This document shows, one piece after another, positions 14,826-44,482 of a stretch of DNA of 64,000 nucleotides. The stretch is from an uncultured Candidatus Saccharibacteria bacterium (GTDB taxonomy: Bacteria > Patescibacteriota > Minisyncoccia > Phycocordibacterales > UBA2100): assembly GCA_964623775.1 (NCBI GenBank), contig CAZUVH010000001.1, positions 40,790-104,789 on the forward strand, given 5' to 3'. A program made the position numbers and the translations under genes. Every line of letters starts with the position of its first letter. Position 1 is the first letter of the stretch. The notes beneath the pieces were generated by a model that made no database searches, had not been told where the DNA came from, and saw only the letters and a list, made by a program, of their open reading frames with translations.

Positions 14826-15075
14826 AGTGCTGAAGGAGGCACTCGGGTACTTCCCGGGCCCGCAACTTCGGGTTTCATGTGCAAAAGGGAGAATCTCGTG
14901 ATTCTCACACGTGGTGACGGCGGCGGCGCATAACCGACTGTCGTGAAAAGAGATGGAAAGTGATGTGTGAAGTTTGAGTCCGGCATCATTTCGGGTTCGG
15001 GATTGTCACATGTCCTTTCCCCAACAGGGCGGCTCTGCGAGAAGCAGAGCCGCCCACAACTTTATCTTTTTTGCT
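14826..15075 (+). ncRNA. candidate small RNA (or tiny-peptide transcript), unassigned
   Basis: ~240-nt unit bounded by the consensus promoter and the intrinsic terminator gggcggctctgc-gaga-gcagagccgccc + T-run at 15028-15075. Contains AAGGAGG with no usable start after it. Only 11-18-codon ORFs (MILTRGDGGGA, MCKRENLVILTRGDGGGA) are present. Several internal GC hairpins. Does not match RNase P, tmRNA, SRP or 5S rRNA signatures by eye. Confidence 0.3.
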
Positions 15076-15856
15076 CGAACTGACCCATTTCCCACAGTAA
15101 AGAGAACAACGTGCTAACACTTTGCGTTATTTCCTTACTTTCTATAGCAACGCCGAACACTTTCCCCTGTAATGCCATAATGGCGACTGTGTTGTTGTAA
15201 ATATAAATATCCGAATGTATCGGCATTCGATCATAGGGGATGAAACGACGCTCTGTAAATTCCACAATGTCGTCGCCGGAAAACGGACCATCCTTGCGCG
15301 TGTAAATAGCTTTGAGGTAAATCCCTTTCGCAGAACGTTTTTGAGCGTGGTCATATCGCTCCTTCTCGGAGTACACATTTGCGAGTGCGTCATGACAATA
15401 AATAAATTTTAATTCAGTGCCACTCGGCAGTGCGAGCAAGCTGTCTCGCATTCGTGCGACACCTTCTTTCCCATCAAAGAATCGTACGATAGGACGCTCG
15501 CCAGCTCCCTCAAACTTTTTTGTGAGTTCGGGAAGGATGGTGGCGAGGTCATTTTCCCTCGATTCAAATTCTCTTTTTTTCGCGTCGAAAATTTTCTTAA
15601 GCAATTCTGGTGATTCGGGGGCAAACATCGTCTTCTTCCCTTCTTCGTAGGTGCTCATGAGGCCCATTTTCATGAGCGACTCGAGCTGCACATAGGTAGT
15701 AGGGCGTTTGATCTTTGCATGCTTCGCGAGCTGATCAGCAGTAGCTTGGCCGATCTCGAGAGCTGCGAGATACACACGCGCTTCTTTTTCCGAGAGACCA
15801 AGATCTTGGAGTTCTTTTAACATCTTCGTATTGTATTGCACAAATGCCTGTATCAA
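15062..15856 (-). CDS. TrmB-family transcriptional regulator (paralog 1)
   Basis: N-terminal wHTH LGLSEKEARVYLAALEIGQATADQLAKHAKIKRPTTYVQLESLMKMGL plus a TrmB-type C-domain. The true start may be the internal Met near 15823. Confidence 0.75.
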   Translation of the reverse strand: MIQAFVQYNTKMLKELQDLGLSEKEARVYLAALEIGQATADQLAKHAKIKRPTTYVQLESLMKMGLMSTYEEGKKTMFAPESPELLKKIFDAKKREFESRENDLATILPELTKKFEGAGERPIVRFFDGKEGVARMRDSLLALPSGTELKFIYCHDALANVYSEKERYDHAQKRSAKGIYLKAIYTRKDGPFSGDDIVEFTERRFIPYDRMPIHSDIYIYNNTVAIMALQGKVFGVAIESKEITQSVSTLFSLLWEMGQFEQKR

Positions 15857-15934
15857 AAATGAATGCTGTTAAAAATTAATTTTAAAAGATTCGGAGGCAC
15901 CACTTTCGTGATACCTCCGTTTGTTGCAACGCGC

Positions 15935-16120
15935 CTACGCGCCGCCACCGTTCTTCTTGCGCGACCTGGCGGCCTTGCTGCCGACGCCGGCGACCGGCGC
16001 GCCGCGCTGGGGCAGGGTCGACTCCTTCTTTCCCTTGCGCCGCTGACGGATAAACCGCTTCGCGGCATTGTTGGAGCACTTGCGCGCGTCCGCCACGAGG
16101 GCGATCGTCTTCGAGTCCAT
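15935..16120 (-). CDS. small basic protein (61 aa, MDSKTIALVADARKCSNNAAKRFIRQRRKGKK...)
   Basis: GGGAGA ribosome-binding site 6 nt upstream of the ATG at 16120. Followed by the hairpin GGAGGUAUCAC-GAAA-GUGGUGCCUCC with a U-tract on the minus strand. Function unknown. Confidence 0.45.
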   Translation of the reverse strand: MDSKTIALVADARKCSNNAAKRFIRQRRKGKKESTLPQRGAPVAGVGSKAARSRKKNGGGA

Positions 16121-16227
16121 GTCAAATCTCCCATTGATGCACCGATCTTGATGCTGGCGAGAGTTTAGCACACTTAAATGCTTTTGTCAAGATCTATTTC
16201 TTGGCTCTATCGCTCGCTTTTTTTGGC

Positions 16228-16614
16228 TTAGTGGAGCGTCTCGTCCTGGTCACGATACGCATCGATTTCAAACCGCTTCACGATATCCTGCGCCAGCATT
16301 TTTAATGTTGCCTCATCATTGAGCGAGATTTTTTCCGGATCGAGGTCTTTCTCTCTCAAAATTTCATGAAAGTAGTGCGCCGGGACATGCTTATCGTCGT
16401 CGCCGGCACCCCATTCCATCATCGCATCTGAATGCTTATAACCTTCTTTTGTCCCGCCCTGACGTTGGATATTGAAAACGATCTCTGCGATCCTGCCTTG
16501 CAACAACATCTCGCGTTTGTATTTTTGCTTATCGAATCCTCCTTCAAATCCCATAGATAACAGTGTATCAGATGTGAAGAAAAATTTGGCCCTCATTGTC
16601 GATCTCTGATACAC
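16228..16614 (-). CDS. hypothetical protein (128 aa)
   Basis: Track ORF with plausible codon usage. No family recognised. Confidence 0.45.
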
Positions 16615-16623
16615 TCTTTTTAT

Positions 16624-17214
16624 ATGCAGAACATCAAATCCCAGCTCGTACCAATGGTCGTAGAGAAAACTTCCTTCGGCGAACGCGCATACGATATCTA
16701 TTCGCGACTTCTCAAAGAGCGCATCGTCTTTTTGGGCGGCCCGATCGACAATGAGGTGGCCAATCTCGTCGTCGCACAGCTCCTCTTCCTCGCATCAGAG
16801 GACCCAAAGAAAGACATCTCTTTCTATATCAACTCCCCCGGAGGCATGGTCACGGCCGGCCTTGCGATCCTCGACACCATGAATCATATCCAGCCCAATG
16901 TATCGACCGTCTGTGTGGGCATGGCCGCCTCGATGGGCGCCGTCCTCCTTTCGGCTGGTCAAAAGGGTAAGCGTTTTGCGCTCCCCAATGCCGAGGTGAT
17001 GATCCACCAGCCCTCAGGAGGTGCCGAGGGTATGGCTGCGGATATCGAGATCACAGCCAAGCAAATCCTCAAACTGCGCCAGCGTCTCAATATGATTTTG
17101 GCCAAAAATACCGGCCAAAAGCTCGAAAAAATCGAAAAAGACGTCGATCGCGACTTCTTTATGGATGCCCCGGAGGCCCTCAAGTACGGCATCATCGACA
17201 AGGTTCTCGGGTAG
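16624..17214 (+). CDS. clpP: ATP-dependent Clp protease proteolytic subunit ClpP
   Basis: Conserved catalytic-Ser (SMGA), His and Asp blocks of ClpP. 196 aa. Confidence 0.9.
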
Positions 17215-17424
17215 AAAACCTCTCACGTACCATCGAAAAGCGCGACACTAGCCACATTGTAAAATTGTGGTACACTCGCCGTGTACACTCTATTAGCTAT
17301 GAATTTCAAATTTTCCAAAACCGCTGGGGGCACCGACATGCAAAAGAAACCCATTCTTAATTTTCCGAATCTGGGGAGTTTTTCGCATTCGTAATCACTC
17401 ACGCGGTGGGAATAACCCACGCGT

Positions 17425-18957
17425 ATGTTATCAACAAAAATAATCCTTCTACTTCTCGCGGCAGCGGGAGTCACTGGTATTGCGGTCGGCTATTTCGCTC
17501 GACTGATCATTTCACTCGGTAAGCGAGGCTCTATGGAGCTCGAGATTCGCAAAATGCGACTCGACGCCGAGGAAAAAGCAAAACGCATCACCGAAGAAGC
17601 AGAGGTGAAGGCAAAGGAGAAGCACGACCAGCTTACTGCTGAATTCAAGGAGCGCGAGCGCGATCACAAAGCGACAGAAGAGCGCCTCATCCGCAAGGAA
17701 GAGCTTCTCGACAAGCGCCAGACGAATCAAGATACGGAACAGGAGACCCTGACCCGCAAGAATCAGGAGGTCGCTGAAGCGAAGGAGAAGGCAGAGGCTC
17801 TCCTTCGTGCCCAGCAAGAAAAACTCGAGAAGATCGCATCGCTCTCCGTCGAGGAGGCGAAGAACGAGCTCCTCAAATCAGTCGAGCAGCAATACGAGAA
17901 AGATATCGAGAGTCGCATGCGCAAGCTTGAGATCGCGGCCGACAACAAGATCGAACAGAAGGCCAATGAGATCCTCACGACTGCCGTACATCGCCTCGGC
18001 AATTCCGTCGTCTCTGATGTCCTCGCGACGACCGTGACGATCCCCAACGACGAGATCAAGGGCAAGATCATCGGCAAGGAGGGTCGCAATATTCGGCAAT
18101 TCGAACGCTCAACCGGTGTCGACGTGATCATCGACGACACGCCGGGCACGATTACCCTCTCTTCGTACGACCCGATTCGCCGCCAGATCGCCCGTATCGC
18201 GCTCGAGAATTTGATTCTCGACGGTCGCATCCAGCCGGCAAAGATCGAAGAGTCTGTGCAAAAGGCTGAGCAGGAGATCAACAACATCATCAAGAAAAAG
18301 GGTGCTGAGGCTGCGTACAACGCCAAGGTCCCGAATCTCGATCCGAAGCTCCTCATGATCCTCGGCCGCTTGTACTTCCGCACAAGCTACGGCCAGAATG
18401 TGCTCGACCATTCCGTAGAGGTCGCCCATCTCGCCGCCATGCTCGCAGCAGAGCTCGGTGCAGATGAAGCTGTCGCCCGCGCTGGCGCGCTCTTCCACGA
18501 CATCGGCAAGGCCGTCGACCATGAGGTCCCAGGTACGCACGTAGAGATCGGCCGCCGCATCCTTCAGAAATTCGGTATTTCAGAAGCAGTGGTCAAGGCG
18601 ATGCAGGCGCACCACGAGGAATATCCGTACGAGACTCCGGAATCCATGATCGTGCAGGTAGCCGATGCGATCTCTGGCGGACGCCCAGGCGCTCGCCGCG
18701 ATAGCGTTGAGAACTACATTAAGCGCCTCGAAGAGCTCGAAGCGATCGCCAACAACCAGCCAGGCGTCGAGAAAAGCTATGCAATCGCCGCAGGCCGCGA
18801 AATCCGCGTCATTGTGAAGCCGGAAGCCCTCTCCGACCTCGAGTCCCGCAAGCTTGCGCGCGATATCGCCGACAAGATCGAGAAAGAACTCCAGTATCCG
18901 GGCGAGATTAAAGTGAGTGTAATTAGAGAGATGAGGGTCATAGAATACGCGCGATAA
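17425..18957 (+). CDS. rny: ribonuclease Y
   Basis: N-terminal TM anchor, coiled coil, KH domain (GKIIGKEGRNIRQFE) and HD domain (HSVEVAHLAAML...FHDIGK). 510 aa. Confidence 0.9.
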   Translation: MLSTKIILLLLAAAGVTGIAVGYFARLIISLGKRGSMELEIRKMRLDAEEKAKRITEEAEVKAKEKHDQLTAEFKERERDHKATEERLIRKEELLDKRQTNQDTEQETLTRKNQEVAEAKEKAEALLRAQQEKLEKIASLSVEEAKNELLKSVEQQYEKDIESRMRKLEIAADNKIEQKANEILTTAVHRLGNSVVSDVLATTVTIPNDEIKGKIIGKEGRNIRQFERSTGVDVIIDDTPGTITLSSYDPIRRQIARIALENLILDGRIQPAKIEESVQKAEQEINNIIKKKGAEAAYNAKVPNLDPKLLMILGRLYFRTSYGQNVLDHSVEVAHLAAMLAAELGADEAVARAGALFHDIGKAVDHEVPGTHVEIGRRILQKFGISEAVVKAMQAHHEEYPYETPESMIVQVADAISGGRPGARRDSVENYIKRLEELEAIANNQPGVEKSYAIAAGREIRVIVKPEALSDLESRKLARDIADKIEKELQYPGEIKVSVIREMRVIEYAR

Positions 18958-19068
18958 AAAGTCTCCGCCTGCCCCGTAGTCAGCTTTGCTGTACTAATGG
19001 GGTCATTCGCGAGATGCGCGTGATCGAATACGCTCGATAAAAACGACACGTGTCATAAGTGTAACCAA

Positions 19069-19096
19069 AAAATGGCTCTGTGGAGCCATTTTTTGC
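19069..19096 (+). terminator. intrinsic terminator aaaaaATGGCTC-tgtg-GAGCCATttttt
   Basis: Perfect stem flanked by A- and T-runs, downstream of rny. Confidence 0.6.
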
Positions 19097-19225
19097 GTTC
19101 ATGGATTTTATGCCTTAAAGCCTGTGTATATATGCACTTACTTGATTGACAGGCTGAAAATACGGCTCAAAATGGTAAAAGAGTGGTCGAGAGGAGACTT
19201 TTTAACCATTTAATCAATACACACT

Positions 19226-19501
19226 ATGGCAAATAAAATGGATTTAGTAGATCGCGTACACTCGACAATCGGCTGCACCAAGGCCGATGCTGAGCGCGCC
19301 GTGGAATCGATGATCACCATGATCACTGAGACCCTCAAGAAGGGCGAGGAGGTATCTGTCGCCGGCTTGGGCATCTTCGAGGCAAAGACGCGTGCCGGCC
19401 GCATGGGACGCAATCCCCGCACCGGTGCGACGATTCAGATTCAGTCGATGCGCGTGCCAAAATTCCGCGCTTCAAAGACCTTGAAAGACGCGATCAAATA
19501 A
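19226..19501 (+). CDS. hup: DNA-binding protein HU
   Basis: 91 aa. Conserved HU arm RNPRTGATIQIQSMRVPKFRASK. Confidence 0.9.
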   Translation: MANKMDLVDRVHSTIGCTKADAERAVESMITMITETLKKGEEVSVAGLGIFEAKTRAGRMGRNPRTGATIQIQSMRVPKFRASKTLKDAIK

Positions 19502-19522
19502 TTTCTCCCTCTGAGAAATACA

Positions 19523-19551
19523 AAAACCGCTCAGCTGAGCGGTTTTTGCTC
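19523..19551. terminator. bidirectional terminator aaaaaccgctcagctgagcggttttt
   Basis: Perfect palindrome with flanking A/T runs, between convergent hup and the TrmB paralog. Confidence 0.6.
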
Positions 19552-19552
19552 T

Positions 19553-20332
19553 TTACTCGATCGACATGCGCCAGAGAGCTTCATAGATCTTCCGGAAGGA
19601 ATCTGCGGTGGACACACTTTCCATCACGACAGCAAAGTAGTCCTGCTTGATAGAGGTGATGATGACGCGGTTTCCATAAATGCCTATATCTGTTTCAAAT
19701 GGCGAGAATTCTGGGGGTAAAAACCTGACTTTTCGGTACTGTCCGCGGACTTTTTCGCCGTACTCTCTGCCTTCCGGAGTATCAAGTATCAGTTCCCTGA
19801 AATAAAATTCGTCCGACAGTGTTTTAAAGTCAACTCGACGGTACGTTTTCTCAAATACCTCTTGTGCAAGCTCCGCACTACTCAAAAAAAGGGCCTCGCC
19901 CTTGGTGATAAACCAATCGTCATAGGCTTTGTCTGCCCCTTCCTTTCCTTCAAAAATGAGGACCCGCGGCTTATTCTTTCCCTTCACAAAGAGTGTCTCC
20001 AACTGTGGAATAGCTTCTCGGATTTCCTTCAAGCGCATTTCTGCTTCAGAAACCAAGTATTTCGGATTTTGTGCAATATAGTATGTATGTTTCCCACGCT
20101 TGAATTGAGAAACGAAACCTTTTTCGGAAAGTTGATCCAATATCAGATATGCCGTCGGCCGCTTCAGAAGCGACTTTTGTGCAACCGCCGCGACTGTCCC
20201 TTCCCCGATTTCCAGGAGAGCCAAGTAAGCACTCTGCTCTTTCGGAGTAAGGCCTAAGTGCTGCAGGGGTTCGAAAGCTACCATTCTAACAAGAATGGCC
20301 CGAGAAACAATAAATGTCAATAAAACTGACAT
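19553..20332 (-). CDS. TrmB-family transcriptional regulator (paralog 2)
   Basis: wHTH LGLTPKEQSAYLALLEIGEGTVAAVAQKSLLKRPTAYLILDQLSEKGFV plus a TrmB C-domain. The likely true start is the internal Met near 20284 (MVAFEPLQHLGL). Confidence 0.75.
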   Translation of the reverse strand: MSVLLTFIVSRAILVRMVAFEPLQHLGLTPKEQSAYLALLEIGEGTVAAVAQKSLLKRPTAYLILDQLSEKGFVSQFKRGKHTYYIAQNPKYLVSEAEMRLKEIREAIPQLETLFVKGKNKPRVLIFEGKEGADKAYDDWFITKGEALFLSSAELAQEVFEKTYRRVDFKTLSDEFYFRELILDTPEGREYGEKVRGQYRKVRFLPPEFSPFETDIGIYGNRVIITSIKQDYFAVVMESVSTADSFRKIYEALWRMSIE

Positions 20333-20333
20333 T
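20313..20333. promoter_or_regulatory. palindrome AATGTCA-ATAAAAC-TGACATT (candidate TrmB operator)
   Basis: Perfect 7-bp arms. Same ATGTnn-AT-rich-nnACAT architecture as the 20-mer at 43119/43745. An extra half-site, ttattgacat, lies near 20388. Confidence 0.4.
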
Positions 20334-20428
20334 ATATGTCCAGGTATTGGCTAAAGTTCATTGAAATTTGCTCCAAAATTACCTAAATTTATTGACATAT
20401 ATGCACTTCAGGGGTAAAATATTCACGG

Positions 20429-20866
20429 TTGAACAACGGAGCACCGCACATGTCAGCATCATTAAGGGTCCTTACCGTCGGCATGACTATCTTTTCGATT
20501 ATCATTGCCCTACTTCTCTTGGACGTCATCTTCGGCCAGGCGAACAGGGAGGACGTTGGGCGCTGTCGGGCGGAAAGTCTTGTACTCACTGAAACTGCCA
20601 CTCGAGCTGGAATCTCGCGAATCGTTGATCGCGCAAAGGTCTCCTGTCCGCAACTCGCCCTCCGGATGGAAGACAGCATCATCTGGATCGAGGACAAAAA
20701 ATTTTGTTCTGATCCCAACAGCAAATTTTGTCGCGATCGGATTCTTGCAGATCTCAGCAATACGCGCATCGGAGACGTTTTCAAGTGCACTCAGGTGATC
20801 TACACAGACTACTCTCGATACCTAAAAGTGTTCTGGATTGAGAACTGTGCCCGAAAAACCGACTAA
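20429..20866 (+). CDS. hypothetical membrane-anchored Cys-rich protein
   Basis: TTGACA-N17-TAAAAT promoter upstream. TM anchor MTIFSIIIALLLLDVIF. Six Cys in the C-domain. Terminator ccggcg-N12-cgccgg + T-run at ~20872-20910. Confidence 0.4.
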   Translation: MNNGAPHMSASLRVLTVGMTIFSIIIALLLLDVIFGQANREDVGRCRAESLVLTETATRAGISRIVDRAKVSCPQLALRMEDSIIWIEDKKFCSDPNSKFCRDRILADLSNTRIGDVFKCTQVIYTDYSRYLKVFWIENCARKTD

Positions 20867-20941
20867 TCACTGCACCGGCGCCTCAATTGAGACGCCGGAC
20901 TTTTTTGTATTACGGCAACCATCGTGTAAAGTGACACTAAA

Positions 20942-21012
20942 GCGGGATTAGTTTAATGGCAAAATAGCGGTTTTCCAAACCGCGGTCGGGGGTCCGATTC
21001 CCCCATCCCGCA
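20942..21012 (+). tRNA. tRNA-Gly (anticodon UCC), T-loop atypical (TCCGATT)
   Basis: Hand-folded cloverleaf: acceptor GCGGGAT/ATCCCGC, D-stem GTTT/AAAT, anticodon stem GCGGT/ACCGC with loop TTTCCAA, T-stem GGGGG/CCCCC. Position 55 reads C instead of the usual U. Confidence 0.55.
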
Positions 21013-21041
21013 CAAATTCCAAAAATGTATAATGACCGCAC

Positions 21042-22220
21042 ATGAGGTTCCTTGGCGTGTATTTTTTTACTTTTTTGACGCTGCTTGTGGCGGGAGGAAT
21101 TTTGTACCTCAGTGCGGGCGCGCGCACAGATTTTCGAAGAGAGATTGAACGCCCCTCGGGGCAGATCTCTACGAGCTCCGTGCCGGGCATTGCATCATCG
21201 ACACCTCTGCGGGCCGCATCGACTACCGCGACTTCCACGATAAAAAAGGTAGCGACTGCACCCAAAAAACCAAGCGTTGAGGCCCCGGAAACGGCGGAAG
21301 AAGCTTCCCTTCCCCCTGCCGATCCCAACATGGCGACCCGCATAAATGATCCCTATCCATTTCCACCCCTCCCCGCCGAAACAATCAACGAAAAGGCCCG
21401 CGAGGCGCTTGTAAATATCTTTTGTGTGCCAAGTGGCGGTAGTATGAGGCCCACCTCCGGGAGCGGAATAATCATCGACCCTCGCGGCGTGATCCTGACC
21501 AACGCCCACGTGGCCCAGTACGTCCTCCTCTCTCAGAGCCAAAATATCGATCTCTCCTGCACCATTCGTTCAGGCTCGCCCGCTGCTCCAAAGTGGCGTG
21601 CTGAAGTGATGTATCTTCCACCAGTCTGGGTACAAGAGCACGTACAAGAGATAAAGTCGCAGCGAGCGTATGGGACGGGCGAGCACGATTACGCTCTCCT
21701 CCTTATCACTCAACCACTAGAAGGTCTGCCGCCTGCAGCCTATCCGTACCTCCCTATCGATACGAGACATGCGATCGGCTTCGAGGGTGATCCTGTCCTC
21801 GTCGCAAGCTATCCTGCCGAGCTTATTGGCGGATTTGCAGCCCAAAATAGCCTCTATGCGATCTCCTCTCATACAACAATCCAGAAACTCCTCACATTTG
21901 TCGCTCAGACGATTGACCTGATCTCCCTCGGTGGCGTCATTGGGGCCCAAAGCGGGTCTTCCGGCGGGGCCGCCGTCAATGCATGGGGGCGCCTCGTTGG
22001 GCTCGTGGTCACGACCAGCGCCGGCGACACCACTGGCGAACGCGACCTCCGTGCCCTTACCTTGAGCTATATAGACCGTGATTTGGCGGTACAGACGGGT
22101 CACAATCTGACGGAGATACTCAGCGCCGATGTAAACATCCTGACATCTGATTTCAGGCAAAAAACCGTCCCTACCCTCATAAAAAAATATATCGATACCC
22201 TCACTGGCTCGAGTCAGTAA
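21042..22220 (+). CDS. membrane-anchored trypsin-like (S1 family) serine peptidase
   Basis: N-terminal TM. His motif ILTNAHV and Ser motif GSSGGA (GDSGG-like) at the expected spacing. No PDZ domain recognised. Confidence 0.6.
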   Translation: MRFLGVYFFTFLTLLVAGGILYLSAGARTDFRREIERPSGQISTSSVPGIASSTPLRAASTTATSTIKKVATAPKKPSVEAPETAEEASLPPADPNMATRINDPYPFPPLPAETINEKAREALVNIFCVPSGGSMRPTSGSGIIIDPRGVILTNAHVAQYVLLSQSQNIDLSCTIRSGSPAAPKWRAEVMYLPPVWVQEHVQEIKSQRAYGTGEHDYALLLITQPLEGLPPAAYPYLPIDTRHAIGFEGDPVLVASYPAELIGGFAAQNSLYAISSHTTIQKLLTFVAQTIDLISLGGVIGAQSGSSGGAAVNAWGRLVGLVVTTSAGDTTGERDLRALTLSYIDRDLAVQTGHNLTEILSADVNILTSDFRQKTVPTLIKKYIDTLTGSSQ

Positions 22221-22270
22221 TCCCTGCGAGTGTGAAATGTGTGATAATATGCCCAAGTTCACATAACTTT

Positions 22271-22344
22271 TCGGGGCGTAGTATACCGGTAGTACGCTTG
22301 CTTTGGGAGCAAGTAGACCGAGTTCGATTCTCGGCGCCCCGACC
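22271..22344 (+). tRNA. tRNA-Pro (anticodon UGG), CCA encoded
   Basis: Cloverleaf with C1-G72 acceptor pair CGGGGCG/CGCCCCG, anticodon stem CTTGC/GCAAG with loop TTTGGGA, T-arm CCGAG-TTCGATT-CTCGG, and 3' ACCA. Confidence 0.85.
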
Positions 22345-22404
22345 AAAAGGTAGTATCTATAAAGGACATGCTGTAGGACACCGTGTCCTATAATGGCTCT
22401 GGGC

Positions 22405-22791
22405 CTACATTACCTGCTCATATAGCCTGCAGGACGCCCGCCGCGTCGAGGTGTTTAAGTATACCGTCACGACATCGATCTGAAAGTCCCTATCGTCCCG
22501 CTTGGTTTCCATATAGAGCTGGGCAGTCCTGGCGACTTTGCCAAGCTTAGACTCGTTGGCGAGCTCCTCGGCTGAGTTATACATTCTTTCACGTGTAACG
22601 TCTGGCGACGTGTCACGTGAAACTGTCTTGACCTCTACAAAGCGGACTTCCCCGCCCTTTTCCGCAATTATATCGATCTCTCCCCAGGGTTTCCTGAAGT
22701 TGCGCTCGATAATCTTGAACCCCTTGCGCTCGAGAAATTGGGCGGCAATTCCCTCTCCAATGTCCCCTGTTTTTCTCTTTTCGGTAACCAC
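22405..22791 (-). CDS. YraN-family (UPF0102) endonuclease-like protein
   Basis: 128 aa. Conserved GE.IA..FL...G..I...N.....GEIDIIA and E.K block layout of UPF0102. Confidence 0.75.
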   Translation of the reverse strand: MVTEKRKTGDIGEGIAAQFLERKGFKIIERNFRKPWGEIDIIAEKGGEVRFVEVKTVSRDTSPDVTRERMYNSAEELANESKLGKVARTAQLYMETKRDDRDFQIDVVTVYLNTSTRRASCRLYEQVM

Positions 22792-23268
22792 AGTCGGGAT
22801 TATATGCCAGATGCGCCATTAGCTATAATTTGGATGCTTTCACGTGAAAACATGCCTAAAACGTTACGTAGTAACATATTTCGTCCTTTATTTGGTCTGG
22901 AATTGGTATTAAATGGCTTAAAATAAGACTATTACAGACAAAAGGACGTTTTGGTAAGAAACATGTATCGAACGTCCTTTATCCCCATATCCCCAGAGTT
23001 TTCCCCAGTTATGCACATCCTGTACTTTTGCGTGCTTCTGGAAGTCCGATCAGGGGAGTCGGTGCATGTCTGCGTCTTTTACGTGTAACAGACAATTTCA
23101 CGCGCTCTTCATCCGGCTTGAGTTTAATACTGCCTGGCTTACTGCTGTGCGCTCTTTTCTTGTGATGCATGTGCTCCTTTTGATCTTTCGAATTCACACA
23201 AGCCCTGTCGGTCGATCTGGGTGAAAATTTTCACGACTGCGATCATGAAAAATTTATGAAATATCTTT

Positions 23269-24363: not shown

Positions 24364-24397
24364 TCGATAAAGACTCCCCTAGGGGAGTCTTTATCTT

Positions 24398-24471: not shown

Positions 24472-24639
24472 TAATTTCGAACGCTTAGTAAACCACTAAA
24501 ACTAACTACTATCGGGTACGCTTGGCGACAGTATCATCCACCGAAGCCATATCCGCGATTGCGCTTGATTATACAGAAGAAGTGACGGTCGGCAATTTTT
24601 TGTTGTATCTGAGCGGCCTCAGGGTATGATAGGAGCCAC

Positions 24640-24711: not shown

Positions 24712-24718
24712 CAACGCA

Positions 24719-35131: not shown

Positions 35132-35296
35132 GACGCAATTCCTTTCTTTTTTCCGCGCAAACTATAGTTGCGATGCGATTCATTGTCAAAACAGATCTCG
35201 CGAGTATACTGGCTCTATTAGTCACTAGTTGTGGCGTACGGATAGGCAGGACTGGCTTCTAGCCAGCGCTGAAATCCGGACGTCACCAAAAAGAAA

Positions 35297-37510: not shown

Positions 37511-39362
37511 ACAGCAGGACCCTCTGCAGGGCAATGTTCCATTGCCAAAACCAGAGGATATAAAAATAATTCCTCCGGCAATGCCGGTATCGCAAAGGGC
37601 GATACCGGCATTGCCACTTGATGACCTGCTTGCACCCGACACGAGCGAGCTTCCTCCATCAAAAATCATTCCTCCGATTTCGGTGATGCCGTCGGTCTCT
37701 GTAACGCCCACACCCACGCCTCCTCCACCCGCACACGTGCCGCCGAACACTCCTCCGGTACCACCCGCACCAGCGACGCGGCCGGTCCCCCCGGAAGTTG
37801 AACCATTTATCCGCAAGACGACACAGCCGACACCCCCTGTCAGTGTGCCGGTTTCTGACCGTATCACTCCTGTGCCTCTCACCCCTTTGAAGCCTCTCGC
37901 ACCTCTTCCACCCAAACCGGCCCCGATTACACCACCCACTTCTGAGCAAGAAATCCCAGAGCCGGTGATTCTTTCTGAGACTGTGAGGCCAAAAGAAAGT
38001 CCGGTGCCCCCTGGAGCGAGTCCGAATATCGCAGGGGAGAGTGCGTCAGCACCCAACAAATCATGGGGGCCGTTTAGCGACAATATTTCCAACATCCTGA
38101 ACGCCATCAAACTACCCGAGCGATTTGATGCAAAGGCATCGGGCGACATCAAAACCCGACCGCCACAAAAAAATCCAGAACCGATTGTGGTTTCCGAAAA
38201 AGTTGTCCCGACGACGAAACAGCCTGCAGCGCCGATAGGTCATAGTGCACCCGTCCCCACACAATCTGCCGCCCAAGAGACTCCTATTCCGGACGTCGGT
38301 CTCCCAAGTCGCGCCGCTGTATCTACGCATGCGCCTGCAGCTTCCACCCCAAGAATGCCGCTTCCTGATCCGGGGCCGTTTATGCCGCCTCCCCCGGCTC
38401 CACCTCCCGCGCCGCCACAACCAACCCCGGTCGCGAATCCCGCCCCGGCTCCAATGCCCGAGCCTGCTGTAGAGACCGCTCCGGATCACTCGATCACACC
38501 ACTGCGCACGTTTAAAGAAGACCTCATGCATGTGGTCCACGATCGCAAGATCTCACTCGTGAGCGCGGCTGCACTCGAACAAGATAAGAAGCGCGACCTC
38601 CCACAGCCGACTCCGGCGGAAATCGCGATAACACGCCACAAGCGGCGACGCATATTTGCAGTACTGTACACAGTGGTAATCCTCATAGGGCTCAGTGCAG
38701 CGGCGCTCTACGGCGTATACACGGTACAGACCCAGCACGCGACGCCCGCACCAAATCCCAATAACACGTCGATCATTTTTGCGGAGCAGACATTTTCTTT
38801 CCCTCTCCAAGACCTCACTCCCAACGACATCAAGCGCACACTCTCACAATCAAGTGGCTCTTCCAACCCATCTTTAGGCTCGATCACACGCATCGTCCCG
38901 ACCGTGAAAACAGAGGAGGGGGGTGCGCGCCTCGCAACGACGGCGGAATTTTTCAAAGCGATAGACCTTCATGTGTCCGATGATCTCGTCCGTGCACTCA
39001 GCAGCGAATTTTTCCTCGGTATTCATACGATCGACAAAAATTCGGCGATGATCATCATCCCCGTCTACTCATACGAACGTGCGTTCGCGGGTATGCTCGA
39101 CTGGGAAGCGGCAATGAATACTGACCTCGCGCCCGCCTTCACCCCAGTTTCTCAATTCACGACCGATGAAAACGGCCTGCCAAAACGACGCGTGTTTGAA
39201 GATGTCGTCATGCGCAATTACGATACACGTGCGCTCAAAGATGATTCGGGTACGGTCCAGCTGTATTACTCGTTCCCGACACCCAATGTCCTGATTATTT
39301 CCGAGAATCCGTTCAGTTTTACGGAAATACTGAGCCGTCTCCAGGTGCAGCGCAGGCTCTAG
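37474..39362 (+). CDS. proline-rich single-pass membrane protein, hypothetical
   Basis: Track ORF 37281..39362 overlaps the pnp 3' end. The internal Met MADETGKTGQ at ~37474 overlaps the pnp stop by ~37 nt. Long Pro-rich N-region, TM IFAVLYTVVILIGLSAAALYGVYTV, and a C-terminal extracytoplasmic domain. Confidence 0.45.
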
Positions 39363-39391
39363 TACGAAAATTTGATGAAGTTGAAAGAATG

Positions 39392-39435
39392 GTATACCCC
39401 GCACCACTTTTCAAAAAAAGTGGTGCGGGGTATAC
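39392..39435. promoter_or_regulatory. 20-bp inverted repeat GTATACCCCGCACCACTTTT-caaa-AAAAGTGGTGCGGGGTATAC, with TATACT -10 inside the right arm
   Basis: Perfect palindrome. The right arm ends 8 nt before the ATG of the DksA/TraR-like gene. The same arms recur at 56923-56942 and 57015-57033. Confidence 0.55.
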
Positions 39436-39443
39436 TGCACGTC

Positions 39444-39818
39444 ATGAAAAAACTCAGCCAAGTAGAAATCGACGAGCTGCGCGAAGCGCTCGAAATTGAA
39501 GAATCGAATCTTGTAGAAGAATTGGCATCGCATGGTCGCGTACAAAATGAGACCGGCGACTGGCAGGGGAATTCAAGCGGTCTCGAGGGCGAAGAAGCGG
39601 ACCCAAATGACGCTGCTGATCAGATCGAGGAACTCGTCACCAATATTCCACTCGTCGAAGAGCTTGAAGCCCGCCACAACGACGTGGAGGAAGCGCTCGA
39701 GAGAATGGATCAGGGAATCTACGGCATCTGCGAAGAATGTGGCGAACAGATCAAGCTCGATCGCCTCAAGGCCAATCCCGCCGCACGCACCTGCGTCGAA
39801 CACGCGGAGGAAGAGTAA
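39444..39818 (+). CDS. DksA/TraR-family C4 zinc-finger protein
   Basis: C-terminal CEECGEQI...C...C zinc finger and the acidic coiled-coil region typical of the DksA/TraR family. ~124 aa from the MKKLSQ start. Confidence 0.7.
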   Translation: MKKLSQVEIDELREALEIEESNLVEELASHGRVQNETGDWQGNSSGLEGEEADPNDAADQIEELVTNIPLVEELEARHNDVEEALERMDQGIYGICEECGEQIKLDRLKANPAARTCVEHAEEE

Positions 39819-39861
39819 ATTCTATTTGCTCAAGCGGAAAGAGGGAACGGCCTGATTTTTA

Positions 39862-40401
39862 TCAGGCCGTTTTAAAAAGTACTCGCTTCGTTTCTTTTGC
39901 AATCGTTTCGCTCACCTGTTTGTTGTGCACAATGTCGGTTAGGTGATTTGAGTGCAGTTTGATGTGCTCCAGAGCCTGCGGATGCTCTGCCCCCCACCAC
40001 ACGAGTTCATCATACTTGGCAGCAAACGATACGATCGGCACATCGGCACTGAGGGCTCGTGAGTTCAAACTTTGCGTAAAAACTCCACCCCAAGATCGGT
40101 GCGGCGAAAAGATCGTAGCTATTCCACATACCGGTGACCTCTTGAACGAAGGCGAACTCGCACAAGCGATGACGCCGCCCATACTATGTCCGACGAGAAG
40201 CAGTCTCTCTCCATCGTCATGTTTTGCGACCACTTCAGCTGTAAATGAACGCAGTCGTTCAATTTCCCACGGGTGACAAAAATATTCTTCCTCGACCGAA
40301 AATTGGGCCGACGGAAAGACGTCCAGAAACGCCGCCCCCAGATTTTTCCATGGATTTTTGTTTTCGTTTGACCACACGCCACTTATGCCGACGATGCGCA
40401 T
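39862..40401 (-). CDS. alpha/beta-hydrolase fold esterase/lipase-like protein
   Basis: Nucleophile elbow GHSMGG. Length 179 aa. Confidence 0.65.
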   Translation of the reverse strand: MRIVGISGVWSNENKNPWKNLGAAFLDVFPSAQFSVEEEYFCHPWEIERLRSFTAEVVAKHDDGERLLLVGHSMGGVIACASSPSFKRSPVCGIATIFSPHRSWGGVFTQSLNSRALSADVPIVSFAAKYDELVWWGAEHPQALEHIKLHSNHLTDIVHNKQVSETIAKETKRVLFKTA

Positions 40402-40488
40402 TCGCGCCTCCCGGTTTGAGTTCCTAATCTGGTATTACCGCCAATCAGTGAGCGGGTCAAGGCGAATCAGTTCGTCAATATTGCGCAC

Positions 40489-42096
40489 GTGTACATACCC
40501 GCCTACAATGTCCCCACTATGGGGTCAAAGCAGGCGATCGCTTCCGGTTTTGCTCGTGTCTTTGGCGCACAACCGATGCTGCCGAAAGCCACAATCGTCT
40601 CGATCGAGTGCGACATTGTAAAAGGACTGCACGCATTCACGATCGTGGGACTACCTGACAAATCGGTGGAAGAAGCAAAAGATCGCATCGCTGCTGCGAT
40701 CAAAAACACCGAGCCACCAGTCCCGACAGGACGCGAAGAGAACGGCTATGAATCTCCAAAGCGCAGTAATAAAAAGATCGTGCTCTCACTCGCGCCCGCC
40801 GAGCTCAAGAAAGAGGGTGCGGCTTTTGATATTCCACTCGCACTTGCGTTTTTACTTGCATCCAAGCAAGTCAAATTCGATCCCAAGGGAAAAATATTTG
40901 CCGGGGAGCTCGCGCTCGATGGCAGCGTACGAAAAATCCTCGGCACGCTTTCCATTACAGCTGCAGCACGTGACGCAGGTTACACAGACGTCTACATACC
41001 GGCAGAAAATGCCGAGGAGGCGTCGCTCATTACGGGATTGCGAATACATCCGGTCGTTTCACTTCAGGGGCTTGTCGAAGAACTCTCCGGTGACACACTC
41101 ACTGAATACGTACCGAGAATGAAGGATGTTTCATACGAGAGTGCCGACGCCGCACTCGATGAGATCCGCGGGCAAGAGAGCGCGAAGCGCGGTCTCATCA
41201 TCGCCGCAGCGGGCGGTCACAATATCGCGCTTTATGGACCGCCAGGCACTGGCAAGACGCTGCTCGCACGCGCAGCCACCTCCATTCTTCCAGATCTTTC
41301 AGAGGATGAGATAGTCGAAGTAACGACCATTCATTCGCTTGCAGGTGTGTTACACGGCGGCCCGATGTTTCGTCCACCGTTTCGCTCGCCACATCACACA
41401 TCATCATACGCGTCGCTTATAGGTGGCGGTTCATCGACAATCCGTCCTGGCGAGGCAACACTCGCCCACAGGGGAGTGCTCTTCGCCGATGAATTTCCTG
41501 AGTTTCACCGTGATGTGATCAACGCACTGCGCGAACCGCTCGAAGATCGCGTTGTCTCGATTTCACGCGCGAAAGGTTCTGCAATATTTCCCGCGAATTT
41601 TATGCTCATCGCCGCACTCAATCCGTGTCCGTGCGGATTTGCCGGCACCTCGCAATGCCAGTGCATGCCGCACTCTATAGAAAAATATCGCCGCAAAATT
41701 TCCGGACCAATCGCGGATCGCATCGATATGTGGGTGTCGGTCGGACATTTGCCGATCGAGACGCTCTCGACACAACAAAAAGCGGTGAGTGGAGAAACGG
41801 CGCGCGCACGAAGGTCAGTCGCTGATGCGCGCAAACGACAAAGGGAGCGATTCAAGGGTGCACGCGGCATGTCGACCAACGCCGACATGGGACCCAAAGA
41901 AATCGAGTCGCACGCAAACCTCTCTCCGAAAGCTGAGGAGACGCTTGTGGGCGCAGCAAAATCCCTGAAGCTCTCCCCGCGTGGCTACCACCGCACCATC
42001 AAGCTCGCACGCACCATTGCCGATCTCGCCAGTAGCGACACGATCGAGCCTTCACACATGCTCGAAGCTCTACAATATCGCGCACGTGAAATATAA
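40489..42096 (+). CDS. comM: Mg-chelatase-like AAA+ protein ComM/YifB family
   Basis: Lon-like N-domain, Walker A GPPGTGKT and the ChlI-type C-domain. The start could be an internal Met at 40519 or 40576. Confidence 0.85.
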   Translation: MYIPAYNVPTMGSKQAIASGFARVFGAQPMLPKATIVSIECDIVKGLHAFTIVGLPDKSVEEAKDRIAAAIKNTEPPVPTGREENGYESPKRSNKKIVLSLAPAELKKEGAAFDIPLALAFLLASKQVKFDPKGKIFAGELALDGSVRKILGTLSITAAARDAGYTDVYIPAENAEEASLITGLRIHPVVSLQGLVEELSGDTLTEYVPRMKDVSYESADAALDEIRGQESAKRGLIIAAAGGHNIALYGPPGTGKTLLARAATSILPDLSEDEIVEVTTIHSLAGVLHGGPMFRPPFRSPHHTSSYASLIGGGSSTIRPGEATLAHRGVLFADEFPEFHRDVINALREPLEDRVVSISRAKGSAIFPANFMLIAALNPCPCGFAGTSQCQCMPHSIEKYRRKISGPIADRIDMWVSVGHLPIETLSTQQKAVSGETARARRSVADARKRQRERFKGARGMSTNADMGPKEIESHANLSPKAEETLVGAAKSLKLSPRGYHRTIKLARTIADLASSDTIEPSHMLEALQYRAREI

Positions 42097-42108
42097 AGAA
42101 AACCCCGG

Positions 42109-42522
42109 TCATTGACCGGGGTTTTGATTTATGTAGTCAGAGAACATCTGAAAGTGATCGGCGATGAACTCTCCGCTTCGCGATTCGATTTCGGCTCGCG
42201 AGAGGAGAAGTACGCGCGTCTTGCCGGCTTCAGATTTCGGCTTGCCGGTCGCGATACCGCGAAACGCGACGGAGATATACGGGCCGCGAGGATCACGCCC
42301 CGCCGCGTCATACAGCCCGACACTACCTTCGATGAAAAATGAAAGGCCAGTTTCTTCGGCGACCTCTCTCATCACGGCTGCCTCGGAACTCTCTCCCGGC
42401 TCGATCTTGCCGCCGGGGAAGGCGAGACCATACGGCTCCGTCAGGCGCTCAGTGACGACAAACTTGTCGTCAAGCCTCGCCAGGGCGTCCACACAGCGGA
42501 TCGGAATGACACTGTGGCTCAT
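42109..42522 (-). CDS. Nudix hydrolase
   Basis: Nudix box GGKIEPGESSEAAVMREVAEETGL. Confidence 0.75.
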   Translation of the reverse strand: MSHSVIPIRCVDALARLDDKFVVTERLTEPYGLAFPGGKIEPGESSEAAVMREVAEETGLSFFIEGSVGLYDAAGRDPRGPYISVAFRGIATGKPKSEAGKTRVLLLSRAEIESRSGEFIADHFQMFSDYINQNPGQ

Positions 42523-42526
42523 GGGA

Positions 42527-43051
42527 TTACTCCTTTTCCCCGTAGGTCACGAGCGACTGGATCGCCCGCGCACCGAGCTTACCCTTCCCGCCGAGGCCGT
42601 CAAGCTCGATGACGAATGCACATCCCGCGACCGTGGCACCCACCGATTCAATGAGAGCACACGCCGCAGCGGCAGTACCGCCAGTGGCCAAGAGGTCGTC
42701 AACCAAGAGCACCTTCATACCGGCATTCACCGCATCTTTCTTGATCTCGATGGTGTCCTCTCCGTACTCCAGCGAGTAGGTCATCTTGACTGTTTCACCG
42801 GGCAACTTGCCCTTCTTACGCACCATCACGAATGGCACACCGAGTGCGAGAGCGATGGGAGCGCCGAAGACAAAGCCACGGGCGTCGAGCGCCGCGACCA
42901 TATCAACTTTTCCCTTCCACTCATCAGTGACCTTCTTCACGACCCATACAAACACCTCAGGGTTCGCAAGAAGCGGCGTGATATCACGGAACATGATCCC
43001 TTTCTTCGGGAAGTCCGGCACATTTCCGATGACTGATTTGAGATTCATCAT
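42527..43051 (-). CDS. apt: adenine phosphoribosyltransferase
   Basis: PRPP-binding motif VLLVDDLLATGGTA. 174 aa. Confidence 0.9.
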   Translation of the reverse strand: MMNLKSVIGNVPDFPKKGIMFRDITPLLANPEVFVWVVKKVTDEWKGKVDMVAALDARGFVFGAPIALALGVPFVMVRKKGKLPGETVKMTYSLEYGEDTIEIKKDAVNAGMKVLLVDDLLATGGTAAAACALIESVGATVAGCAFVIELDGLGGKGKLGARAIQSLVTYGEKE

Positions 43052-43118
43052 ATCCTCCTGTCAAAGAACTTTTGTATTGTGGAGTACATGTATGAAAAAT
43101 GTTGTCGTGACAGATAGT

Positions 43119-43138
43119 ATGTACTAAATAAAGTACAT
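43119..43138. promoter_or_regulatory. palindromic 20-mer ATGTACTAAATAAAGTACAT (copy 1)
   Basis: Identical to the copy at 43745-43764. Sits ~68 nt upstream of the apt start. Confidence 0.5.
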
Positions 43139-43181
43139 ATGTGTATAAAAAAACCGCGGCCAGATGGCCGCGGCGAAGACG

Positions 43182-43469
43182 CTAGATACTGTGATCGGTC
43201 CCATCGAATACTGCCTGCTTCTTACTCACCTTGCCCCAGACGGAATCGGGCACGTTTTTGACCGCAGAATACGCCCCGCACTGCGGACACAAGATACCTG
43301 GATACTTATGGGCGAAATGCGTTCCGTACCACAGCATCGGCACAAGATCATCGGTTTCGACTTCCAGTTCGGCACCACAGCCCTTACTCTTCATTGATTT
43401 GATGCCCTTGCACTCCACCTTGGTCTTCCAATTCTTGCCGACGTTGCCGTCCTTTAACACCTTAACCAT
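43182..43469 (-). CDS. small zinc-ribbon protein (CxxxxxxxxxC ... CPQC)
   Basis: AGGAGG ribosome-binding site before MVKVLKDG. Four Cys in two pairs. The track ORF starts slightly upstream. Confidence 0.45.
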   Translation of the reverse strand: MVKVLKDGNVGKNWKTKVECKGIKSMKSKGCGAELEVETDDLVPMLWYGTHFAHKYPGILCPQCGAYSAVKNVPDSVWGKVSKKQAVFDGTDHSI

Positions 43470-43477
43470 GCTTCCTC

Positions 43478-43669
43478 CTACCAACTACTGATCGTGATGT
43501 CCTTCTTGCAAGTCGGGCACACCACATATTCACCGCCACACGAACCGCCCATGTCCCGTCCAGACCAACTCTTGAGGTCGTTGGGCACATAGGCGATCGT
43601 GGTGCCACAACCCTTGCAGGTTACCTTCTTCTCGACTTCCTTCGAGGGCTTCGTGCTGATGATCCGCAT
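43478..43669 (-). CDS. small zinc-ribbon protein (CKGC ... CPTC), paralog of the downstream gene
   Basis: GGAGAA ribosome-binding site. 63 aa. VTCKGCGTT... resembles VECKG..GCGAE of its neighbour. Confidence 0.45.
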   Translation of the reverse strand: MRIISTKPSKEVEKKVTCKGCGTTIAYVPNDLKSWSGRDMGGSCGGEYVVCPTCKKDITISSW

Positions 43670-43744
43670 GATGGTTCTCCTTTTTTCAAAGAACTACTTG
43701 TAGGATACCGGGAGGGGGCGAGAAAGTCGTCGATGGTTGTAAAA

Positions 43745-43764
43745 ATGTACTAAATAAAGTACAT
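43745..43764. promoter_or_regulatory. palindromic 20-mer ATGTACTAAATAAAGTACAT (copy 2)
   Basis: 8 nt upstream of the TrmB paralog 3 start, in the divergent promoter region shared with the zinc-ribbon gene pair. Confidence 0.5.
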
Positions 43765-43771
43765 TCAGGAC

Positions 43772-44482
43772 ATGAATCTCCGTGAGACTTTCACACGACT
43801 TGGGCTGCCAAAACACAGCGACGAGATTTTTTCGACTCTGGAGAAAAGCGGACCGTCATCGGTGAGTGCACTCAAAAACGCGACCGGCGTGCATCGCCCC
43901 GCCATCTACCGTTCACTCAAGGCGCTTTTAAAGAGAAGGCTTGTTTCCGAAAAAACGTTTGGCAAGCGAATCTACTACGTGGCTGAATCCCGTGCGCATA
44001 TAACAAAAATCTTTGTGCACACAGCCGAAGAGGTGACACGTCTTGAAAGTGGTGCACCAAAAAATAGTGCGGGGGCAGTCAGATACTTCGAAGGGGAGAG
44101 TGCCGTCACCGCGCTTTTCAATGACCTCGTTGAGCACAGCAGGCGCGGCGACACCTTTTACCGATATACGTCGGAAAAAAACCTCGATCAGGTGAATCGG
44201 CTTTTGCCTTCCGATTACCGCAAGCGTCGAGACGCAAAGAGGCTCGAGCGCCTTGTGATCAGTAATCCCGAGTCGGGCAAGCGCAAACAAAACAGGCTCG
44301 AGCGTTTTATAAAATTCCTCGGCTCAGAAAAAGAATCGTTCCATCAAAACGCAATCCAGCTCATCTACGGAGATCGCCTCGCGTTTATTGATCTCAATAC
44401 ATTCAAAGGCTTCATTATAGAAAACAAAACCCTCGCCGAATTCCAAAAAACGATCTTCCGAGCGCTCTACAAGCGTCTTTAG
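43772..44482 (+). CDS. TrmB-like HTH transcriptional regulator (paralog 3)
   Basis: N-terminal wHTH LGLPKHSDEIFSTLEKSGPSSVSALKNATGVHRPAIYRSLKALLKRRLV, with a C-domain collinear with the other two paralogs. Confidence 0.65.
   Translation: MNLRETFTRLGLPKHSDEIFSTLEKSGPSSVSALKNATGVHRPAIYRSLKALLKRRLVSEKTFGKRIYYVAESRAHITKIFVHTAEEVTRLESGAPKNSAGAVRYFEGESAVTALFNDLVEHSRRGDTFYRYTSEKNLDQVNRLLPSDYRKRRDAKRLERLVISNPESGKRKQNRLERFIKFLGSEKESFHQNAIQLIYGDRLAFIDLNTFKGFIIENKTLAEFQKTIFRALYKRL

Follow-up and report, generated by a model that had tools for sequence, protein, structure and literature searches.

The stretch of DNA considered here, the window, comprises 64,000 nucleotides (nt) of a contig from an uncultured Candidatus Saccharibacteria bacterium (GCA_964623775.1, CAZUVH010000001.1, positions 40,790 to 104,789) and encodes three regulators of the TrmB family, the third of which is preceded by a palindromic 20-mer that recurs in front of an adenine phosphoribosyltransferase gene; this regulator and its putative operator are the main subject of the analysis. 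Paralog 1 (15062-15823, minus strand, 253 amino acids (aa)), paralog 2 (19553-20284, minus strand, 243 aa) and paralog 3 (43772-44482, plus strand, 236 aa) match the TrmB winged helix-turn-helix (wHTH) family PF01978 with 53.5, 51.4 and 27.9 bits, all above the Pfam gathering cut-off of 25.6 bits, which bears out the three TrmB-like wHTH regulators named in an earlier note on this DNA; no fourth paralog was found by tblastn in the window. The homology among them is full-length, with 29% identity between paralogs 1 and 2 and 21% between paralog 3 and either of the others. The NCBIfam equivalogs of archaeal TrmB proteins reach only 16.5-29.4 bits with paralogs 1 and 2, over the N-terminus only, against cut-offs of 500-650, and for paralog 3 no TrmB-type NCBIfam equivalog match is listed. 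The span that the earlier note gave to paralog 3 is unchanged, whereas the other two had to be shortened: ATG 15823, in agreement with the public gene call and the orthologs, is most likely the start of paralog 1, and ATG 20284 instead of 20332 is most likely that of paralog 2, whose orthologs mostly have 243 aa.

Relatives of all three regulators occur in Kaiserbacteria, Adlerbacteria, Paceibacterota, Harrisonbacteria, Moranbacteria and similar metagenome-assembled genomes, from which the window is assigned to a Parcubacteria-type bacterium of the Candidate Phyla Radiation (CPR). For paralog 3, 382 homologs were collected, many of them at 47-89% identity in Parcubacteria, and the family is of moderate size (59 matches at E <=1e-30 and 238 at <=1e-10 among 1.84 billion cluster representatives). 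Judged by sequence comparison, each of the three is an old, lineage-wide orthologous group with members of at least 50% identity in several Parcubacteria candidate phyla, so that the co-occurrence of three TrmB paralogs, which had been presented as an oddity, is none.

The paralog 3 locus and its putative twin operator

Upstream of paralog 3 and divergent to it lies an operon of two zinc-ribbon genes, led by gene 1 (43478-43669, minus strand, 63 aa) and continued by gene 2 (43182-43469, minus strand, 95 aa), an ortholog of a Cys4 family found beside paralog 3 orthologs. They had been described as a paralogous pair, which is correct with the bounds of gene 2 set at 43182-43469, although the relationship is distant (30% identity over 43 aa, E 6e-4; four invariant Cys are shared with the wider family). 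The operon closes with an intrinsic terminator (43153-43174, minus strand; 9-bp stem with 8 GC pairs, followed by a T-run) that abuts the first copy of the 20-mer, and beyond it, on the same strand, follow apt, the adenine phosphoribosyltransferase gene (42527-43051; NCBIfam equivalog NF002636 with 226.8 bits against a cut-off of 125, TIGR01090 with 208.1 against 185.85), and a co-operonic Nudix hydrolase gene (42109-42522; NUDIX domain by Pfam).

The 20-mer ATGTACTAAATAAAGTACAT, whose 7-bp arms (ATGTACT/AGTACAT) form a dyad around a spacer of 6 bp, is located exactly twice in the window, at 43119-43138 (copy A) and at 43745-43764 (copy B), just as the earlier note had it; with up to 3 mismatches no further copy was found in the 64 kb, and none in 100 shuffles. 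Copy B ends 7 nt before the ATG of paralog 3, not 8 nt as had been stated. The degenerate palindrome ATGTMMN{7,8}KKACAT, proposed there as a search pattern, returns from the window just the three sites already named, namely both 20-mers and 20314-20332 upstream of paralog 2, where 0.05 are expected.

Copy B, the putative autoregulatory operator, covers the spacer and the -10 element of a predicted paralog 3 promoter (43737-43765, plus strand; TTGTAA 43737-43742, 17 nt, TACATT 43760-43765, 6 nt, ATG), the right arm of the dyad being the -10 hexamer and the left arm lying inside the spacer. This promoter was read from the sequence, has 8/12 consensus matches and is unlisted by the promoter scan. 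With 6 nt between the -10 element and the start codon, the mRNA is expected to begin at the ATG itself and leave no room for a Shine-Dalgarno sequence, that is, it would be leaderless. With respect to the divergent genes, copy B lies at about -69 to -50 of the putative zinc-ribbon promoter and copy A at about -69 to -50 of the putative apt promoter. A leftward promoter starting directly out of the operator was discarded, having poor -35 positions and being absent from the promoter scan.

Conservation of the dyad was followed in an alignment of 49 homologs of paralog 3 and in 66 loci from species-representative genomes. A consensus dyad rTGTAhyA-N5-rrTACAyt (TGTA-N10-TACA), usually with TTGAnA 5' of it, precedes nearly every ortholog of 40-74% identity, about 40 in Parcubacteria, and the distance from its end to the start codon is exactly 7 nt in 27 of 36 orthologs, as it is in the window. 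When a matrix built from 37 ortholog sites is run over the window, only the two 20-mers exceed 9 bits, each with 22.8 bits, and block-shuffled controls give an expectation of 0.015 sites of at least 18 bits; in loci L001-L050, 42 matches of at least 18 bits stand against 0.15 expected from such controls.

It could be argued that no regulator is involved and that the 20-mers are what is left of a promoter module that was recently duplicated, or else mark where a small inserted cassette with the zinc-ribbon genes ends on either side, their palindromy arising from back-to-back -10 elements, of which the right arm has indeed the appearance. The two copies are 100% identical even in the non-conserved spacer, form direct repeats 626 bp apart that flank the zinc-ribbon genes, and are accompanied in both regions by a second block, TCAAAGAACT, at equal offset. 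Between these two conserved blocks, however, the regions are unlike, which argues for conservation of the elements as such and not for a recent segmental copy, and in the closest relative (L001) the same two-site layout is formed by sites that differ at 4/20 positions, the layout being kept in more distant genomes as well. The left arm TGTA, at a fixed 10 bp from TACA, is moreover no sigma-70 element and is retained where no gene starts 7 nt downstream. We therefore hold an origin without a regulator to be highly improbable, and the unlike flanks and the retention of the layout in distant genomes led us to reject its variant, a mobile cassette or recent duplication.

A near-match of the dyad, TTGTACCACTGAATACAT, upstream of the open reading frame (ORF) 50223-50567 (minus strand) was also dismissed, having the wrong spacing (TGTA-N8-TACA) and a matrix score below 9 bits. 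The stretch 50568-50610 (minus strand), in which TTGTACCACTGAATACAT is followed by TAGAAT, 7 nt and the ATG of this 114-aa membrane-like ORF, is itself a leaderless-type promoter.

Predicted target promoters and regulon

When 41 sites are aligned on the operator and read toward the target gene, a common profile emerges in which positions 1-8 correspond to the -35 element of the regulator gene itself, read in reverse complement, positions 15-19 read CTGCA (G 83%) at the -35 position, positions 38-43, which begin 37 nt from the operator edge, read TAnnnT (T 80%, A 83%, T 80%), and position 50, 7 nt after the -10 element, is a G (78%). The profile points to target promoters of the form cTGcan-17-TAnnnT-6-G(+1), with the operator at -69 to -50 and centred at about -59.5. 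Throughout the 41 sites the operator lies 14 nt upstream of the target -35 position and never overlaps the target core promoter, whereas that of the regulator is always overlapped, and second sites without an adjoining regulator gene keep the same operator-promoter spacing. In the window, the putative apt promoter (43061-43104, minus strand), with a -35-like CAACAT at 43099-43104, -10 CACAAT at 43076-43081, a predicted start at G 43069 and the motif AGTTCTTTGA at 43061-43070, fits this profile, and so does the putative zinc-ribbon promoter (43686-43707, minus strand), which combines -10 TATCCT at 43702-43707 with AGTTCTTTGA in the 5' untranslated region (5'-UTR) at 43686-43695.

Two features of the target promoters are recorded in their own right. 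A non-canonical -35 block, TTTTCTGCA or CTGCA, recurs at positions 15-19 from the operator edge in loci L018-L033 and may mark activator-dependent promoters or reflect a sigma-factor preference of Parcubacteria. A 5'-UTR motif, GTTC(T/A)TTGA, lies between the predicted start and the Shine-Dalgarno sequence of target genes in the window and in loci L001-L041; of its 38 occurrences in 528 kb, 17 are within 120 nt of an operator, and a few of the others are in UTR-like contexts elsewhere. An RNA structure for this motif, GUUCUUUGA, was rejected, as pairing of UUCUUU with the Shine-Dalgarno sequence is present in the minimum-energy folds of several genes at energies no better than those of shuffles (z -1.4 to +1.8). 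Rfam at gathering score identifies only four tRNAs in the window and nothing in the regulator regions.

The gene neighbourhood of the orthologs is narrowly composed. In a tblastn census, every paralog 3 ortholog locus has an opposite-strand upstream neighbour drawn from prs (5-phosphoribosyl-1-pyrophosphate (PRPP) synthetase), apt, Nudix, zinc-ribbon and a family labelled U100. Genes prs, apt and Nudix, usually in this order, are divergent to the regulator at 23 loci including the window, the Cys4 zinc-ribbon family at about 12 loci, in some of them in tandem, and U100, the commonest divergent partner, at about 17 loci. Proteins of the latter family (about 100 aa; ..IAPIKP..IPD.V.E.FN.LI..F...GWLD.ED.YRK.GW.V.YD.P.Y.ES..; for example L019 5566-5877, minus strand, in the range L009-L048) have no Pfam or NCBIfam match, and the gene is absent from the window. 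The identity of prs is supported by Pfam in L007 and L025, and in L025 a 329-aa fusion protein (3665-4654, minus strand; Pribosyltran and NUDIX by Pfam) supports a functional link of apt and Nudix, which are adjacent in the window.

Sites that did not enter the matrix training are found at L001 5607, L007 3906, L011 10561, L022 1491, L025 4723, L034 487 and, weakly, L038 4848. Downstream of them lie prs-apt-Nudix (L001), U100 (L011), prs (L022 and L034), the apt-Nudix fusion (L025) and apt-Nudix (L038), and the second site of L007 precedes genes for a 172-aa unknown protein, a histidine phosphatase, a ribulose-phosphate epimerase and a transketolase. Locus L001, the closest relative with 74% protein identity, mirrors the window with regulator, divergent zinc-ribbon gene, terminator, second operator and prs-apt. 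That paralog 3 would control its own gene, apt-Nudix and the zinc-ribbon genes, as the earlier note had proposed, is thus strongly backed by footprinting and gene context in about 40 genomes, and the predicted regulon is wider than first proposed and forms a nucleotide-salvage module of PRPP synthetase, apt and Nudix together with zinc-ribbon and U100 proteins. Responsiveness to sugars, carried over in that note from the archaeal family, is not implied, as the regulon indicates ribose-phosphate and purine salvage.

Two observations concern the borders of this region. Directly 3' of paralog 3, on the opposite strand, genes for a DUF202 membrane protein and an ATP-dependent DNA ligase are located (44484-45875, minus strand), and the same neighbours are present on Logan contigs that carry an identical paralog 3 regulator. 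Between the Nudix gene and a convergent Mg-chelatase-like gene, positions 42099-42125 hold a perfect 13-bp inverted repeat, AAAACCCCGGTCA-T-TGACCGGGGTTTT, which looks like a bidirectional terminator.

The proposed circuit and its relatives

Whether one and the same protein recognises both sites can be addressed by co-variation. In nine genomes with two sites, the paired sites share 7.6/11 variable positions compared with 5.8 between genomes (permutation P = 5e-4; P = 0.003 for within-genome similarity if the window is left out). Operators with TGTAAC arms pair with a recognition helix of the form (S/A)R(V/M/Q)xVYR(C/N) in 9/13 genomes, and those with TGTAC or TGTAT arms pair with HRPAxYRA-type helices, the S/A form being found in 0/24. 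The palindrome might nevertheless be bound by another protein, such as paralog 1 or an unrelated factor, its placement beside paralog 3 reflecting shared regulation only; paralog 1 is without a recognisable operator at its own gene, and the wHTH domains of all three paralogs are related. This we judge improbable, as the site accompanies the paralog 3 ortholog in about 40 genomes and keeps a constant distance of 7 nt from its start codon, the recognition helix of paralog 3 covaries with the operator arm, and paralog 2 has a distinct motif of its own.

We consider it likely that paralog 3 reads the 20-bp dyad, represses its own gene and probably activates the zinc-ribbon and apt-Nudix operons. 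A paralog 3 dimer would recognise rTGTAhyA-N5-rrTACAyt; at its own gene, where the operator covers spacer and -10 element, the bound protein would exclude RNA polymerase, which amounts to negative autoregulation, and at the targets, bound at -69 to -50 of promoters with a weak -35 element (cTGcan), it would most likely activate. Regulators of the LysR type are commonly divergent to their target, bind a dyad near -60/-65 of the target promoter that lies over their own promoter, and combine negative autoregulation with effector-dependent activation; the geometry at paralog 3 is alike, a likeness of layout only and not of homology. For the archaeal regulators TrmB, TrmBL1/Tgr and VNG1451C, the established rule is that sites located upstream of the promoter lead to activation and sites that cover it to repression (PMC4158304). 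The LysR-like layout and this archaeal position rule together favour autorepression combined with activation of the targets.

Alternatively, paralog 3 could repress everywhere. From -60 it would then block contacts of the RNA polymerase alpha C-terminal domain with an UP-element, or oligomerise or loop onto half-sites, and an effector would de-repress the salvage genes, as with TrmB at malE or in PurR-type control. Salvage genes are commonly controlled by repressors in other bacteria, and half-site-like sequences do occur inside target promoters (ATGTACT 43083-43089; TACATT as the -10 element in L001), but these extra half-sites vary in position and orientation. The TrmB of Thermococcales is a repressor that is released by inducer sugars (PMC4158304), yet the distance of 14 nt between operator and target -35 element, which leaves the target core promoter free in 41 sites, and the weak target -35 elements, typical of activator-dependent promoters, make repression at all sites rather unlikely. 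Activation of the targets with repression of the own gene is therefore the preferred reading.

The AlphaFold2 (AF2) model of paralog 3 (pLDDT 87) consists of the wHTH domain, a 21-residue helix (74-94) that immediately follows the wing, and a C-terminal domain of alpha/beta type, and a Foldseek search of the PDB places TrmBL2 first (E 7.7e-11, 269 aligned columns), followed by TrmB (E 4.3e-7). In the TrmB family, an amphipathic helix after the wHTH domain forms a dimer coiled coil, operators are palindromic with a spacer (TATCAC-N5-GTGATA; TACT-N7-8-GAGTA) and autoregulation has been reported (PMC4158304); the conserved promoter palindromes of the paralog 2 and paralog 3 orthologous groups appear to be the counterpart of this trait. 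Like paralog 3, TrmBL1 of Pyrococcus furiosus, Tgr of Thermococcus kodakarensis and VNG1451C of Halobacterium salinarum combine a PF01978 wHTH domain, a long helix and an effector-type domain, which is putative in paralog 3. While these archaeal proteins, about 340 aa long, include a C-terminal subdomain that binds sugars and act on TBP/TFB promoters of glycolysis and gluconeogenesis, paralog 3 is a bacterial protein of 236 aa associated with sigma-70-type promoters, putative leaderless mRNAs and PRPP/adenine salvage, and its TGTA-N10-TACA motif differs from theirs. The best structural match, TrmBL2 of Thermococcales (PDB 5bpd/5box), is similar to it in length with about 260 aa and has no sugar-binding subdomain. 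It is an abundant chromatin protein that binds both within and between genes and follows no defined motif (PDB title, PMC4158304), whereas paralog 3 has a sharply defined, conserved putative operator, and the sequence likeness of the two extends only over wHTH and helix.

In the C-terminal half of paralog 3, R131, R150, R153, K156, R160, K172, R175 and R178 are invariant in the 49-homolog alignment. Together with the content of the regulon, these basic residues suggest a phosphorylated ligand; a ribose or purine metabolite in phosphorylated form is the probable effector, which the Arg/Lys-rich C-terminal domain would sense. PurR of Bacillus subtilis, the PRPP-sensing repressor of the pur operon, has a phosphoribosyltransferase-like effector domain and is a possible functional analogue with regard to purine and PRPP metabolism; in paralog 3 no Pribosyltran, HTH_1 or LysR_substrate match is found by Pfam, and sensing of PRPP by it is hypothetical.

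Several points weigh against this circuit as a whole. Binding, dimer state, effector, sign of regulation and leaderless starts have all been deduced from sequence, and the sign at the targets in particular is read from the position of the operator. The matrix was trained on autoregulatory sites, so that matches to these are circular and just about seven to eight second sites count as independent, and as the right arm of the dyad is itself -10-like, promoter constraint could explain part of the conservation at the regulator gene. Helix-operator covariation and within-genome similarity of sites are supportive only, being confounded by phylogeny and possibly by recent duplication. In L002, L003 and L005, apt directly follows the zinc-ribbon terminator and no second paralog 3 site is found, from which it follows that, under a window-like gene order, separate control of apt is not universal. 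Operator scans of the source genome cover the 64-kb window. As to the protein, the TM-score is low (0.40), the C-terminal likeness to TrmB comes from one full-length Foldseek alignment, and sequence profiles align paralog 3 to TrmB and TrmBL2 over residues 4-103 only.

With autorepression and target activation as the preferred reading, a broader proposal may tentatively be put forward: paralog 3 might be a conserved nucleotide-salvage master regulator of Parcubacteria, a short TrmBL2-like TrmB protein that senses PRPP, ribose-5-phosphate, ADP-ribose or AMP, represses itself and activates prs-apt-Nudix from -60, with the zinc-ribbon and U100 proteins as undescribed components of salvage or scavenging. 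If true, the CPR would have its first defined regulator-operator-effector circuit, and an archaeal-type sugar sensor would have been repurposed for nucleotide economy in bacteria without de novo nucleotide synthesis. The CPR, or Patescibacteria, account for a large share of bacterial diversity, are mostly uncultured, depend on salvaged nucleotides, and their gene regulation is almost undescribed; in full-text literature searches, no paper turned up in which TrmB is mentioned along with CPR, Patescibacteria or Parcubacteria. The set presented here would be among the first testable combinations of regulator, operator and regulon for ultra-small uncultured CPR/Parcubacteria, and it is compact enough for work in vitro: the protein has 236 aa, the operator measures 20 bp and differs from genome to genome, the promoter geometry is fixed and the targets (PRPP synthetase, apt, Nudix) are coherent. 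By guilt by association it also places the zinc-ribbon and U100 proteins in nucleotide-salvage biology, and it supplies working models of Parcubacteria promoters, those of leaderless regulator genes included. Such models can improve the calling of start codons; in the first-stage ORF list, which took the first in-frame start codon, two of the three regulator ORFs had been made too long.

Paralogs 2 and 1

Paralog 2 looks like a separate local regulator with a putative operator of its own, AATGTCAATAAAACTGACATT (AATGTCA-N7-TGACATT, 20313-20333, 16.8 bits), and no further site of this kind was found in the 64-kb window. The minus-strand TTGACA at 20315-20320 inside the palindrome is the -35 element of a promoter with -10 CATTCT at 20292-20297, followed by 7 nt and the ATG. 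The corrected start puts the palindrome at 29-49 nt upstream of the gene, so that it falls within the promoter and does not cover the first codon. Among 30 metagenome loci with orthologs of 44-53% identity, 27/30 have G-TGTCA-N7-TGACA-wa (25-33 bits) 28-34 nt before the predicted ATG, and a strong site lies farther upstream in the remaining three. In these orthologs TTGACA is the -35 element, the -10 element follows 17-18 nt on and the ATG about 7-9 nt later, a leaderless layout.

A weaker second site is present 65-66 bp upstream in eight paralog 2 loci, in seven of them in opposite orientation, where it provides the -35 element of the divergent gene. In the window, its counterpart is a partial site of the right arm only, TTGACAT at 20392-20398, exactly 66 bp from the operator, within a region (20379-20420, plus strand) that includes a divergent promoter TTGACA-17-TAAAAT with 11/12 consensus matches. 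The palindrome and the "extra half-site" of the earlier note are thus both conserved in the orthologous group, the half-site as this weaker second site; the same architecture that it had claimed for both regulators is approximately right, as paralog 3 has TGTA-N10-TACA over the -10 element and paralog 2 TGTCA-N7-TGACA over the -35 element. In the corresponding mechanism, the operator would serve as the -35 element of the gene's own leaderless promoter and the weaker copy as that of the divergent membrane-protein gene. This gene, the putative target, encodes a Cys-rich single-pass membrane protein (20450-20866, plus strand; the ORF opens at TTG 20429) without a Pfam or NCBIfam family match; among the paralog 2 orthologs the divergent genes vary and include those for ABC substrate-binding proteins, a YhhQ-like protein and others.

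At paralog 1, a -10 element TACAAT (15830-15835) stands 6 nt before the ATG. A palindrome was sought and discarded here, as the window and seven distinct orthologous loci have in common just a -10 element, placed 6-7 nt ahead of the ATG in a leaderless arrangement, and no dyad; the earlier note had likewise seen none upstream of this gene.

The surroundings of paralog 1 hold several features of their own. Upstream of its promoter, a very GC-rich small ORF (15935-16120, minus strand) for a basic protein of about 61 aa (MDSKTIALVADARKCSNNAAKRFIRQRRKGKKE...), with a composition sharply unlike its neighbours, is followed by a hairpin terminator. Downstream of the gene, about 1.25 kb (13807-15062) are without a convincing ORF, and a weak gntR-DTE match at 14992-15068 (minus strand) reaches 27.8 bits against a gathering score of 63.6. 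All seven distinct loci with paralog 1 orthologs have 0.4-1.4 kb without a called gene after the regulator, and in L147, L149, L151 and L155 a common conserved block of 100-350 nt follows it, with no Rfam match and no blastn match to the window. Beside the ortholog in L155 (293-1873), a Ro60/TROVE protein gene is found together with a 600-nt gene-free gap, which is possibly a Y-RNA locus, and beside that in L156 (1912-2383) lies a permuted tmRNA (RF01849, 89.9 bits).

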